Shown here: in pieces, positions 38,556 through 40,588 of the stretch
Numbering within the stretch: position 1 is the stretch's first letter
Layout: every line of letters starts with the position of its first letter
DNA from: Lewinellaceae bacterium
GTDB lineage: Bacteria; Bacteroidota; Bacteroidia; Chitinophagales; Saprospiraceae
DNA: 64,000 bases
Assembly: GCA_016713985.1 (NCBI GenBank)
Contig: JADJOD010000005.1
Span: 40,012 to 104,011 of the forward strand
Direction: 5' to 3'
Made by a program: the position numbers and the translations under genes
Notes under the pieces: model-generated
Told to the model about the DNA's origin: nothing
What the model saw: the letters and a program-made list of their open reading frames with translations, nothing else
The model's database searches: none

Positions 38556-38679
38556 TATTCAACAATCTTCTCCACAATACTCAGTGCAGACACATTAAAT
38601 TTTATAACCGGGAAGTGACAGGAGCAAAATATCGTCCTTTTTTTTAAAAAAAACAAAAAGTTTTAAATGTAATTTTAAT

Positions 38680-38687
38680 TATCTTTG
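38680..38687 (+). promoter_or_regulatory. Candidate Bacteroidota -7 promoter box (TAnnTTTG) for the TcmP/DUF5131 cassette
   Basis: TATCTTTG lies 24 nt upstream of the ATG at 38711, in a very AT-rich leader. Confidence 0.45.
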
Positions 38688-38710
38688 TCTCAACAAAATA
38701 CGACCCAATC

Positions 38711-39811
38711 ATGAGTAAAAATCTTCATGAAAAGCCTTTTGATGAAACCACCATCGCCAAGTTGGAAATCTTTGAAGATTATGCCCAAGCATGGATACCG
38801 GCCTTCGTTATGTGGGGCGAACCTGTGATTTGTATTTTTGATTTTTTTGCCGGAACAGGCTTTGACAAAAACGGTGTACCCGGCAGCCCAATTCGTATTT
38901 TGAAAAAAACAAAAGAACAGATTGGGCATATTTTCCAGAAAAAGGTTCAATTGAAAGTATTTTTCAATGAATTCGATCCAAAGAAATGTGAACAGCTTTC
39001 CAGGTCTTGTGACGATTTTCTCAAAACCCACTCTGATGTACGTCGCGCTATTGAACTCAAAATCTCCAATGAGGATTTCGATGTTTGCTTTGAAAGATTG
39101 CTACCCACCATCAAAGCACACTCAAGTCTTGTTTATCTTGACCAAAATGGGATCCGTTTTTTGGCCGATAAGTATCTTCTCGAACTTGAAAAAACGACTC
39201 GCACTGATTTTCTTTACTTTGTATCATCCTCTTATTTTTGGCGATTTGGTGAAAAGGAAGAATTTAAATCTCATGTAATTCTTGATATGGAAGAAGCGAA
39301 GAAAAATCCTTACCAATTCATTCACCGCAGTCTGATTACCCAACTTCGGACGAAGTTGCCTTTGGACTCCAAACTCAAACTTTATCCGTTTTCGCTGAAA
39401 AAAGGAGCTAATATTCACGGCATTATTTTCGGCGCTTCGCACCCGCGTGCAGCGGAAAAATTTTTAAGCATTGCTTGGAAGCGCAACGAGATAAACGGGG
39501 AGGCAAACTTTGATATTGACGAAGACCATAAAAAAAACCAACTCAACTTTTTTGAACCACCTCAGCTCAAAAAAATCGCATCATTTCAGCAACGCCTGCG
39601 GGAAAAAATACTGAGCGGAAGCATTTCCAACAATTTTGAAGCATTCAATTTCGCATTAGGGGAGGCTTATCTTGGCAGCCATGCTGCTGAGGAACTGAAA
39701 AAGATGAAAAAAGAAAAATTGATTGATTATGATGGCCTTTCCCCATTGGTGACTTACGTAAATGTATATCAAAAGGAGAGACTGGTAACCTTCAAACTTG
39801 TGAAAAAATGA
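38711..39811 (+). CDS. tcmP: Three-Cys-motif partner protein (TcmP family)
   Basis: 366 aa. The sequence reads ...KLEIFEDYAQAWIPAFV...ICIFDFFAGTGFDKNG...LVYLDQNGIRF. I recall this family mainly from its obligate pairing with a Gp37/Gp68 (DUF5131) gene, which overlaps it here by 4 nt. FDFFAGTG resembles a Rossmann/SAM motif I. Confidence 0.6.
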   Translation: MSKNLHEKPFDETTIAKLEIFEDYAQAWIPAFVMWGEPVICIFDFFAGTGFDKNGVPGSPIRILKKTKEQIGHIFQKKVQLKVFFNEFDPKKCEQLSRSCDDFLKTHSDVRRAIELKISNEDFDVCFERLLPTIKAHSSLVYLDQNGIRFLADKYLLELEKTTRTDFLYFVSSSYFWRFGEKEEFKSHVILDMEEAKKNPYQFIHRSLITQLRTKLPLDSKLKLYPFSLKKGANIHGIIFGASHPRAAEKFLSIAWKRNEINGEANFDIDEDHKKNQLNFFEPPQLKKIASFQQRLREKILSGSISNNFEAFNFALGEAYLGSHAAEELKKMKKEKLIDYDGLSPLVTYVNVYQKERLVTFKLVKK

Positions 39812-40560
39812 AGTATTCAAAAATAGAATGGACAGAAGCCACATGGAATCCCAGCACAGGTTGTAATAAAGTAACGGCTGGTTGTAAAAATTGCTATGCC
39901 GAAGCCATGGCGAAGCGCTTACAGGCAATGGGTGCGCCGGGCTATGAAAACGGTTTCGAGTTTACGCTTATGCCAGAACGCTTAAATATGCCTCTAAAAA
40001 TTAAGAAACCTACCAAGTTCTTCGTCAATTCCATGAGCGACCTATTCCACGAAAAGATGCCTTTCGGTTTTTTGGATAGGGTGTTTGACGTCATCGAACA
40101 AACACCTCAGCACAAATATCAAATCCTCACTAAGCGGGAAACAATACTTCAAGAGTATTGCAGTACCCGAAAAATGCCGGATAATGTGTGGCTTGGCGTC
40201 AGTGTCGAATCCTTCAAGACTAAACACCGGATTAATATTTTACAGAAGATTCCAGCCAAAATCCGATTCTTGTCTGTTGAACCACTCATTTCCGATATAG
40301 GTAAATTGGATTTGAATGGCATTCATTGGGTCATTGTCGGAGGAGAAAGCGGCCCTAAAGCGAGGCCCATGCGGCCGGAATGGGCAATTCATGTACAAAG
40401 CCAATGCGATCAACAAGGTGTGGCTTTTTTTTTCAAGCAATGGGGCGCTTGGGGCGAAGACGGCGTGAAAAGAGGCAAAAAAGCAAATGGCAGGCTGTTT
40501 TTAGGGCGCGAATGGAATGAAGAACCTCGCTTTACAGAAACAGAATCGGTTCTAACCTGA
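39808..40560 (+). CDS. Phage Gp37/Gp68 family protein (DUF5131), three-Cys motif
   Basis: MKYSKIEWTEATWNPSTGCNKVTAGCKNCYAEAMAKRL matches the hallmark IEWT..TWNP..GC...S.GC..CYA N-terminus (C-x6-C-x2-C). VIVGGESGPKARPM...W is also present. The start overlaps the tcmP stop (ATGA). Confidence 0.8.
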   Translation: MKYSKIEWTEATWNPSTGCNKVTAGCKNCYAEAMAKRLQAMGAPGYENGFEFTLMPERLNMPLKIKKPTKFFVNSMSDLFHEKMPFGFLDRVFDVIEQTPQHKYQILTKRETILQEYCSTRKMPDNVWLGVSVESFKTKHRINILQKIPAKIRFLSVEPLISDIGKLDLNGIHWVIVGGESGPKARPMRPEWAIHVQSQCDQQGVAFFFKQWGAWGEDGVKRGKKANGRLFLGREWNEEPRFTETESVLT

Positions 40561-40588
40561 AAACATAAACTCACCTTCGACCCTCTAC

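Follow-up and report, generated by a model that had tools for sequence, protein, structure and literature searches.

A 64,000-nucleotide (nt) stretch of contig JADJOD010000005.1 (assembly GCA_016713985.1, Lewinellaceae bacterium; hereafter the window) carries a two-gene cassette in which a TcmP gene is joined to a DUF5131 (Gp37/Gp68) gene. The names of its homologues place the window in the Saprospiraceae, phylum Bacteroidota. Our analysis firmly supports the view that this TcmP-DUF5131 cassette is foreign, was acquired horizontally, bears its own promoter and was inserted into a catabolic operon of one Saprospiraceae lineage. The case for foreign origin is built on low GC content, overall and at third codon positions (GC3), on the absence of the pair from all 160 related operons surveyed, on copies with the same promoter at unrelated sites, and on a synonymous divergence (dS) from a related locus that is lower in the cassette than around it. 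As to function, we lean moderately towards a conflict module that targets nucleic acid with two subunits and would count as a candidate anti-phage system, made of a fast-evolving methyltransferase-fold protein and a conserved enzyme resembling radical S-adenosylmethionine (SAM) proteins.

The TcmP gene (open reading frame (ORF) A, 38711-39811, plus strand) encodes 366 amino acids (aa), and the DUF5131 gene (ORF B, 39808-40560, plus strand) encodes the 250 aa of the radical-SAM-like enzyme. Both were recovered as described in a first-pass annotation of the window, and so was the ATGA at 39808-39811 (plus strand), a direct sequence reading, in which the start codon of the second gene overlaps the stop codon of the first. 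The overlap suggests translational coupling of the two genes, and the same 4-nt overlap is present in loci L001-L004, L089-L090 and L098. Together with its leader and the spacer behind it the cassette spans 38649-40588 (1,940 bp) at a GC content of 40.8% (0.408). All other intervals of the same length in the 64 kb have a mean GC of 0.543 (sd 0.029, minimum 0.465), which places the cassette at z = -4.7 and makes its GC dip the deepest in the window. GC3 is 0.39 for TcmP and 0.46 for DUF5131 as compared to 0.68-0.70 for the flanking GntP, DSD and M19 genes. The low GC that had been reported for this stretch is thus real, and the four hand counts per 60 nt given for it (24, 26, 31 and 39) were all exact on recount. 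The next-lowest stretches, 33000-35000 and 7000-9000 (about 0.47 in 2-kb intervals), are much milder dips; the one at 33000-35000 is contained in the 3' half of the gene for a 1,054-aa TPR-repeat protein (31886-35050).

The genes around the cassette form a catabolic operon on the plus strand. Upstream, Pfam matches identify a GntP-family permease (35223-36695), a RidA/YjgF-like protein (36804-37259) and a D-Ser-dehydratase-like enzyme (DSD; true start at the ATG at 37446, end at 38555); downstream follows an M19 membrane dipeptidase (40589-41665; PF01244 at 2.2e-53). The order GntP-RidA-DSD-M19 is conserved in many Bacteroidota. For a survey of this operon the DSD protein was used to collect 80 reference-genome loci and the M19 protein to collect 80 metagenome loci, 54 of them informative. 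In about 41 of the 80 genome loci the gene immediately following DSD is M19, and DSD lies 5-227 bp upstream of M19 in 36 of the 54 informative metagenome loci. Since DSD and M19 are usually adjacent, M19 is the last gene of the same operon, and the cassette splits that operon. The earlier description of the cassette as sitting between a D-amino-acid operon and an M19 dipeptidase is right about the neighbours, but M19 belongs to the same conserved operon and the insertion is therefore intra-operonic. The TcmP/DUF5131 pair was found in none of the 160 related DSD/M19 loci (0/80 genome, 0/80 metagenome). With this distribution and a foreign composition the pair is not a conserved core-genome locus, a finding that would have spoken against its acquisition from elsewhere.

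Insertion at the same site was found in one related metagenome-assembled genome (MAG) only (GCA_017991255.1, locus L001). Other related Saprospiraceae cassettes, with 71-74% and 83-87% aa identity, reside at unrelated sites: one is flanked by an ABC-2 transporter and an M61 peptidase, the other follows an Mpo1-like gene, and no recombinase is near either of them. DNA homology among the cassette copies (L002, L005) spans window positions 38649(-38651) to 40526 and stops at EWNEEP, a few codons before the DUF5131 stop. In these comparisons the left junction (38556-38648), an AT-rich segment from the DSD stop to the conserved start of the cassette, aligns with L001 only and not with L002 or L005. 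The right junction (40527-40588) comprises the lineage-specific C-terminal tail of DUF5131 after EWNEEP and then a 28-nt spacer to the M19 start. An empty DSD-M19 site was sought among close relatives, but none of the DSD relatives in the genome scan exceeded 50% identity, and the corresponding metagenome scan found only a truncated contig with an 88% identical M19. These scans therefore did not define the exact insertion junction.

TcmP genes have a GC content of 38-41% in hosts of 51-54% GC, and close DUF5131 relatives occur in Flavobacterium and Sphingobacterium. Circulation of the cassette among lower-GC Bacteroidota would fit these values, the GC content of Flavobacterium and Sphingobacterium genomes being assumed. 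The dS values against L001 are 1.25 for GntP, 1.25 for RidA, 0.85 for DSD, 0.51 for TcmP, 0.31 for DUF5131 and 0.68 for M19; such estimates are rough between compositionally different genes. A sliding identity profile against L001 agrees with this gradient, divergence being lowest in the cassette and rising outward. The dS values suggest that the cassette is younger than its flanks, or that it was exchanged with short flanks by recombination between related lineages. In the same comparison dN/dS is very low in the cassette genes, which argues that they are kept functional. Synteny of the window (35853-41663) with L001 ends exactly at the M19 stop.

A promoter and leader at 38649-38710 (plus strand), containing AAACAAAAAGTT and TTATCTTTG and delimited by homology between cassette copies, travel with the two genes. 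The leader holds a -7 box, TATCTTTG, at 38680-38687, 24 nt 5' of the tcmP ATG; the Bacteroidota consensus for this element is TAnnTTTG. The bare motif is at chance level in the window (32 matches, 31.6 expected). The box is kept at the same position in four cassette copies, three of them at unrelated sites, and all four also share the blocks AAACAAAAAGTT and TTATCTTTG in the 60 bp ahead of the genes. It is this positional conservation, and not the motif itself, that makes the promoter reading credible. The first-pass annotation was therefore right that a consensus box is present, but the motif alone would not have carried the claim. As judged from these alignments, the mobile unit carries its own predicted Bacteroidota-type promoter. 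Sigma-70 promoter and terminator scans gave results at the level of shuffled sequence; no plus-strand terminator-like site was predicted between the DUF5131 gene and M19, and none was detected at the left junction.

Searches for target-site duplications and terminal inverted repeats returned only chance-level short repeats, none of them at the cassette ends; the sole exact 11-mer pair (38389/40571) is at chance level as well and lies away from the boundary. A tRNA search of the 64-kb window found none, and no integrase, transposase or recombinase occurs among the neighbouring genes scanned, here or in L001, L002 and L005. The earlier statement that no integrase, tRNA or clear target-site duplication is visible agrees with all of these scans. 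None of the features that define integrative elements (a recombinase, a tRNA or att site, flanking direct repeats) was found with the cassette, and an Rfam scan of 36000-42500 returned no RNA family.

Both genes belong to the families first proposed for them. TcmP passes the TIGR04474 hidden Markov model (HMM) with 119.5 bits (cut-off 53; profile positions 2-262 of 263) and matches the PADLOC model PDC-M30A at 1e-137 over residues 1-362. Its AF2 model (pLDDT 95.9, pTM 0.93) consists of an N-terminal helix, a Rossmann core (beta1-beta5), an insertion (residues 172-222), a beta6-beta7 hairpin and a C-terminal three-helix winged domain. Residues 37-262 adopt a class I SAM-methyltransferase fold in this model. 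The winged helix-turn-helix (wHTH) domain at about residues 288-366 (nt 39572-39808) corresponds to PF22560 (GMT-wHTH), which remains below threshold on the window protein (19.1 bits) and matches 97 of 111 relatives. The motif FDFFAGTG (residues 43-50, nt 38837-38860) had been likened to SAM-binding motif I, and the modelled fold and the conservation of the motif uphold this: D44 is found in 110 of the 111 sequences and G48 and G50 in all 111, the three residues following beta1, and the acidic residue at position 87 (E/D in 110/111) ends beta2. At the end of beta4, D144-Q145-x-G147 is conserved in at least 109 of the 111.

All top 50 PDB hits of TcmP in Foldseek are methyltransferases with a probability of about 1.0 (COMT, TrmR, CmoA, fibrillarin), and most of its top BFVD matches are viral methyltransferases; the likeness does not go beyond the fold (E 5e-5 to 1e-3). 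TcmP matches none of the methyltransferase families in Pfam, and PDB sequence and profile searches gave no match. The top matches of the Rossmann domain (3tfw, 7cvx, 2zth, 5zw3) are cation-dependent COMT-like O-methyltransferases, including the tRNA ho5U methyltransferase TrmR. These enzymes share with TcmP both motif I and an acidic residue after beta2, at 9-14% identity and a TM score of 0.3 normalised to TcmP, which differs by its extra N-terminal helix, the insertion 172-222 and the C-terminal wHTH. On motifs and model together we class TcmP as a SAM-binding methyltransferase-fold protein, its methyltransferase activity being putative.

DUF5131 passes PF07505 with 348.1 bits (gathering threshold 28.9; profile positions 2-243 of 243), in agreement with the first annotation. 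PF07505 and PF17338 are its sole Pfam matches; it also matches the PADLOC model PDC-M30B at 9e-116 over residues 1-245, and phrog_2045, a family of unknown function. The three-cysteine N-terminus noted before is present (IEWT...WNP..GC-x6-C-x2-CYA), with C19-x6-C26-x2-C29-Y-A encoded at nt 39862-39894. In an alignment of Bacteroidota and Actinobacteria homologues, C19, C26, C29, Y30 and A31 are invariant in 56 sequences from the two phyla; further conserved blocks are NSMxDLFH (S77 in about 90%), QxLTKR, RFLSxEPL, WVIxGGESG and FFFKQWG. Radical-SAM cores run in the order beta1, Cys loop, alpha1 and so on through a partial (beta/alpha)6 barrel. The AF2 model of DUF5131 (pLDDT 79.9, pTM 0.80) shows beta1 (residues 11-13), the Cys loop, alpha1 (30-40) and five more beta/alpha units, that is a (beta/alpha)6 layout. 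The Cys loop has a pLDDT below 50, as expected without a cluster in the model.

The best natural Foldseek matches of DUF5131 are spore photoproduct lyase (SPL) structures (4fhf, 4fhg, 4fhc; E about 5e-3, probability 0.98-1.0, TM about 0.46), followed by viperin (6b4c, TM 0.43), AprD4, Mmp10 and NifB; no match, SPL included, reaches E 1e-3. SPL itself works directly on DNA by radical SAM chemistry. Apart from being the best natural structural match it represents a neighbouring curated subgroup: in SFLD/RadicalSAM.org, DUF5131 is the radical-SAM subgroup Megacluster-5-2 and SPL is Megacluster-5-3 (PMC9477430). The two share 12-14% identity and differ in length (250 aa in DUF5131, 340 aa in SPL) and in cysteine spacing (C-x6-C-x2-C as opposed to C-x3-C-x2-C); unlike SPL, DUF5131 comes with an obligate partner of methyltransferase fold and is distributed on mobile elements. 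Distantly homologous to DUF5131 is the radical SAM mobile pair protein A of Bacteroides mobile elements (TIGR04471, 106.5 bits), which also belongs to a two-gene pair on mobile DNA; Bacteroides plasmids match DUF5131 at about 32% identity. DUF5131 is far below the equivalog cut-off of that model (106.5 vs 355 bits), and the partner of the TIGR04471 protein, going by the family name, is presumably a second radical SAM protein and not TcmP. Radical-SAM membership of DUF5131 is plausible and endorsed by curators, but putative.

The pair is widespread. Searches for DUF5131 gave 181 positives among 50,697 phage records; 440 of 72,556 plasmids also carry it, and 164 of these plasmids are conjugative; TcmP comprises more than 900 cluster representatives at 50% identity; and PADLOC flags the pair in about one third of a P. 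aeruginosa diversity panel. A tblastn search of the 50,697 phages with the window TcmP gave no match. Absence of TcmP from phages was nevertheless rejected, since hhalign and TIGR04474 identify the 'methyltransferase' beside DUF5131 in Gordonia phages as TcmP. The miss is a sensitivity artefact, TcmP being too divergent. DUF5131 neighbours passing TIGR04474 were found in Gordonia phage Fairfaxidum, Mycobacterium canettii, a Prescottella equi prophage, a Flavobacterium genome, S. meliloti pSymA and a Synechococcus phage, and in Jablanski, Easley and BaxterFox the protein adjoining DUF5131 was recognised as a TcmP relative by tblastn. The label 'phage-associated' given to the pair therefore needs qualifying: DUF5131 is present in the 181 phage records, and HMMs find TcmP next to it in Gordonia and Synechococcus phages.

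Gene order varies between these hosts. In Bacteroidota TcmP precedes DUF5131 on the same strand, in the window with the ATGA overlap; P. aeruginosa has the reverse order, DUF5131 then TcmP; in Actinobacteria, their phages and Synechococcus phages the genes are convergent. That the pairing is kept across gene orders and phyla argues for a functional link. On the P. aeruginosa plasmid pF051 (L103, NZ_CP115230.1, 1926-5083) a site-specific integrase, DUF5131 and a 438-aa TcmP follow one another, a copy of the pair in direct association with an integrase.

The partners evolve at strikingly different rates. In four related temperate Gordonia phages (L087 Fairfaxidum, L099 Jablanski, L100 Easley, L101 BaxterFox) the DUF5131 proteins are 93-96% identical, and the convergent TcmPs adjoining them only 21-48%. 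TcmP adjoins the immunity repressor on the same strand in Fairfaxidum, Easley and BaxterFox; it is directly downstream of the repressor with a gap of 3 nt in Easley and overlapping genes in BaxterFox, and in these two it is probably co-transcribed with the repressor in lysogens. The repressor region is expressed in lysogens, and actinobacteriophage defence genes are typically found there. One further copy of the pair lies at the end of the Prescottella equi prophage. In the BaxterFox record (NC_031226.1 and KU963263.1) the DUF5131 gene itself is seemingly missing or mis-called: tblastn places a complete DUF5131 gene, whose product shares 95% identity with that of Fairfaxidum, at about 3493-4233 of the locus on the minus strand, opposite the annotated small coding sequences 40 and 41.

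On pSymA (L102, NC_003037.1, 1247259-1262017) two TcmP paralogues (415 aa on the plus strand, 308 aa on the minus strand) lie on either side of a single DUF5131. The genes at 6962-7780, 7816-9063, 9081-10007 and 10086-12623 of this locus comprise the one DUF5131, the two TcmP and a helicase gene, and the second TcmP is directly downstream of the latter. This 845-aa helicase gene is very probably hna, a phage-defence gene. SMa2243 (TcmP) and hna have been described as a putative transcription unit up-regulated by NolR (PMC12445080). In locus L089 (JGI 3300076002, a 2.6-Mb contig; 2697-10841) a pair whose proteins are 66% and 79% identical to those of the window directly follows an AAA_15/AAA_21 ATPase with its 269-aa partner and a 1,151-aa LRR-Roc-COR protein, a neighbourhood that is defence-island-like, unlike the metabolic one of the window. 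Another Bacteroidota copy is beside PDDEXK_4, DUF4238 and HTH genes, and terminase genes accompany a third on its IMG/VR contig.

The pair itself is not new. Both PDC-M30 models match the adjacent, co-oriented genes of the window almost end to end, and no sequence feature separates the window pair from PDC-M30; it is already catalogued as this PADLOC candidate, and the families, their pairing and the radical-SAM class are on record as well. PDC-M30 is one of 145 phage defence candidates (PDCs) derived from genes embedded in BREX, DISARM or type I restriction-modification (RM) loci (Payne et al., bioRxiv 10.1101/2024.01.29.577857). In the supplement of that study PDC-M30 and PDC-M41 have the same B family and different A families (bioRxiv 10.1101/2024.01.29.577857). 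PDC-M30 candidates are embedded in defence systems, whereas the window copy stands by itself in a catabolic operon. With reference to the TIGR04474/PF07505 pair, the window genes pass both HMMs, adjoin each other and encode the three-Cys motif; the family names carry no function. PADLOC models of known systems, viperins included, do not match the window pair. Nor did the literature yield a documented housekeeping function, which would have pointed away from a conflict role.

The mechanism we favour assigns different tasks to the two proteins. DUF5131 would be the conserved catalytic subunit, binding a [4Fe-4S] cluster via C19, C26 and C29, cleaving SAM to a 5'-deoxyadenosyl radical and directing this radical at a nucleic-acid substrate, as SPL does on DNA. 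TcmP would be the fast-evolving, SAM-binding wHTH partner that selects the target or senses the invader, and it might add a methyl group. The data show the family identities, the foreign origin, the insertion into the operon, the folds and conserved motifs, the obligate pairing in several gene orders, the uneven variability of the partners and their occurrence on prophages, plasmids and islands; the Fe-S/SAM chemistry, the nucleic-acid substrate, a physical complex and protection against phages are what we infer. The conflict role is argued from the asymmetry between variable TcmP and invariant DUF5131, the position in lysogeny modules, the embedding in and adjacency to defence genes, and mobility; the asymmetry is further backed by M30 and M41 sharing the B but not the A family and by the two TcmP per DUF5131 on pSymA.

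Several observations weigh against this proposal. On the chemical side, DUF5131 has the spacing C-x6-C-x2-C instead of the canonical C-x3-C-x2-C; non-canonical spacings are known in the radical SAM superfamily, so the deviation weakens membership without excluding it. PF04055 (Radical_SAM) does not match DUF5131, and neither does any PDB sequence or profile; the assignment draws on a weak structural similarity of the model (E about 5e-3, TM about 0.46). TcmP has DQxG where a recognised motif IV ((D/N/S)PP(Y/F/W) or PC) would be expected. Family-profile scans found no nuclease or familiar effector domain in either protein, and there is no obvious route to discriminate self from non-self. On the genomic side, the window copy and the L002 and L005 copies are solitary in metabolic surroundings, and no further defence gene lies close by. 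DUF5131 moreover occurs solo in mycobacteriophage early modules (L104 Squirty, L105 Sbash, L110 prophiT36-2a) beside RecE/RecT, DNA methyltransferases, resolvases and replication initiators, and an HMM that recovered 5/5 positive-control TcmP ORFs found no TcmP in the whole prophiT36-2a genome. Solo genes in phage DNA-metabolism modules fit a role in DNA metabolism or modification at least as well. On the side of prior knowledge, full-text literature searches found no functional study of DUF5131 or the TcmP family and no later defence test of the pair, and two other PDCs gave no defence when tested in a native host. PDC-M30 is a 'guilt-by-embedding' candidate only, and its authors call the PDCs untested (bioRxiv 10.1101/2024.01.29.577857). 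The prophiT36-2a DUF5131 is annotated as 'RNA methyltransferase', a label for which this analysis found no support.

Among other accounts, the solo phage genes fit a stand-alone nucleic-acid modification module without immune function, in which DUF5131 and TcmP would jointly install a covalent modification of DNA (or RNA), e.g. by radical C-H activation followed by methyl transfer; the modification would protect its carrier from restriction or set an epigenetic mark. The company of RecE/RecT, DNA methyltransferases and replication initiators in phage early regions is what such a module would keep; the SAM motifs of TcmP are retained, its near folds include TrmR, the methyltransferase of a hydroxylated tRNA base, conjugative plasmids often carry the pair, and no nuclease partner is found. 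The place of TcmP beside the immunity repressor on the same strand in Gordonia phages is, however, unusual for phage self-protection genes, and a hypervariable TcmP next to an invariant DUF5131 is the more usual picture in a recognition arms race, although differing site specificities could also produce it; embedding in RM and BREX loci fits either reading. We regard this account as unlikely, though the likeliest of the alternatives. The precedent of prokaryotic viperins (pVips), in which radical-SAM antiviral chemistry acts on free nucleotides, raises the idea that DUF5131 converts a free nucleotide to an antiviral analogue and that TcmP modifies or regulates. Viperin (6b4c, TM 0.43) is indeed among the structural matches, but it is a weaker one than SPL, no PADLOC viperin model matches, and the wHTH in 97 of 111 TcmP relatives and the hypervariability of this protein are unexpected for a small-molecule tailoring enzyme. 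A viperin-like product system is accordingly improbable.

Selfish addiction of the toxin-antitoxin or R-M kind, in which DUF5131 damages nucleic acid, TcmP neutralises the damage or protects by methylation, and loss of the cassette leads to post-segregational killing, would explain why a compact two-gene unit with its own promoter persists at unrelated sites without a recombinase; convergent arrangements as in many type II R-M systems and the very low dN/dS would suit it too. Solo DUF5131 is tolerated in phages, however, the prophiT36-2a genome being without TcmP, extra TcmP copies exist, no nuclease domain is present, and tight coupling with TcmP upstream is not diagnostic; we consider addiction slightly less probable still than the viperin-like system. 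Lower again, and very improbable, is an SPL-related DNA-repair lyase for UV or desiccation lesions with TcmP as accessory DNA-binding factor. SPL structures (4fhf, 4fhg, 4fhc; probability 0.98-1.0) are the best natural matches, SFLD places DUF5131 next to SPL, and environmental bacteria as well as phages of soil and water carry members of the family, but a hypervariable methyltransferase-fold partner is unexpected for a repair enzyme, as are lysogeny modules, RM/BREX loci and adjacency to hna, and the SPL likeness is at fold level only (12-14% identity). A pair that had simply been passed on vertically as an accessory to the D-amino-acid/dipeptide catabolic operon, finally, would share the transcription direction of the operon, as the pair does, would not need a terminator before M19, where none is predicted, and could be seen in the one related MAG with the same arrangement. 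Against this stand the 0/160 related operons and the foreign composition, which effectively refute a native operon gene, as well as the same cassette at unrelated sites elsewhere and families typical of mobile elements; the idea retains next to no credibility.

Within the favoured conflict-module reading, a parallel is found in RM systems with exchangeable specificity (type I HsdS/HsdM, type II M): here, too, a variable methyltransferase-fold DNA-binding protein is combined with a conserved catalytic partner, and the pair is likewise mobile, occurs in convergent layouts and lies within or near RM loci. Unlike RM systems, the pair has no endonuclease or helicase domain, its conserved partner is radical-SAM-like, and TcmP is without (D/N/S)PP(Y/F/W) or PC. 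The pVips share a radical-SAM fold employed in antiviral defence, with viperin 6b4c among the DUF5131 matches. They need no partner, take free nucleotides as substrate and carry the canonical C-x3-C-x2-C; DUF5131 by contrast has a wHTH-bearing partner and C-x6-C-x2-C, and the PADLOC viperin models do not match it. A bolder version of the proposal, which we put forward as a speculation and think rather unlikely as a whole, is an immune system in which radical chemistry replaces the nuclease. Interchangeable, quickly diverging TcmP subunits would direct a nearly invariant, SPL-like DUF5131 to break invading nucleic acid or modify it covalently, solo phage DUF5131 would be a counter-measure or self-modifier, and the whole would amount to a radical-SAM RM analogue moving as a two-gene cassette with its promoter and without a recombinase.

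If a radical-SAM defence or modification system acting on nucleic acid were confirmed, it would add a new chemistry to phage-host conflict, and a programmable targeting subunit with a constant catalytic subunit would become possible. The pair is common, yet no published function was found; its asymmetry, the repressor adjacency, the pSymA paralogues by hna and the solo DUF5131 make this function more testable. The window instance is ordinary for its kind, apart from the tidy intra-operonic insertion without a recombinase. The locus is a clean natural example of cassette spread, a 1.9-kb unit with its own Bacteroidota promoter that interrupts an operon and shows neither a recombinase nor a detectable duplication of its target.

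Two minor features of the surrounding sequence are worth recording. Downstream of the operon a galactose-1-phosphate uridylyltransferase gene is split into ORFs 44131-44475 and 44478-45152 by a frame shift at about 44400-44440, close to a run of six Ts; either the gene is a pseudogene or the homopolymer was misread in sequencing. Between RidA and DSD a 9-bp tandem repeat of ATCCTGTCA occupies 37340-37428 (9.9 copies, 97% matches); it is absent from L001, where the alignment shows a 153-nt gap. The repeat yields a spurious N-terminal extension of DSD ('CQSCQS...') from a TTG start, the real start being the ATG at 37446.

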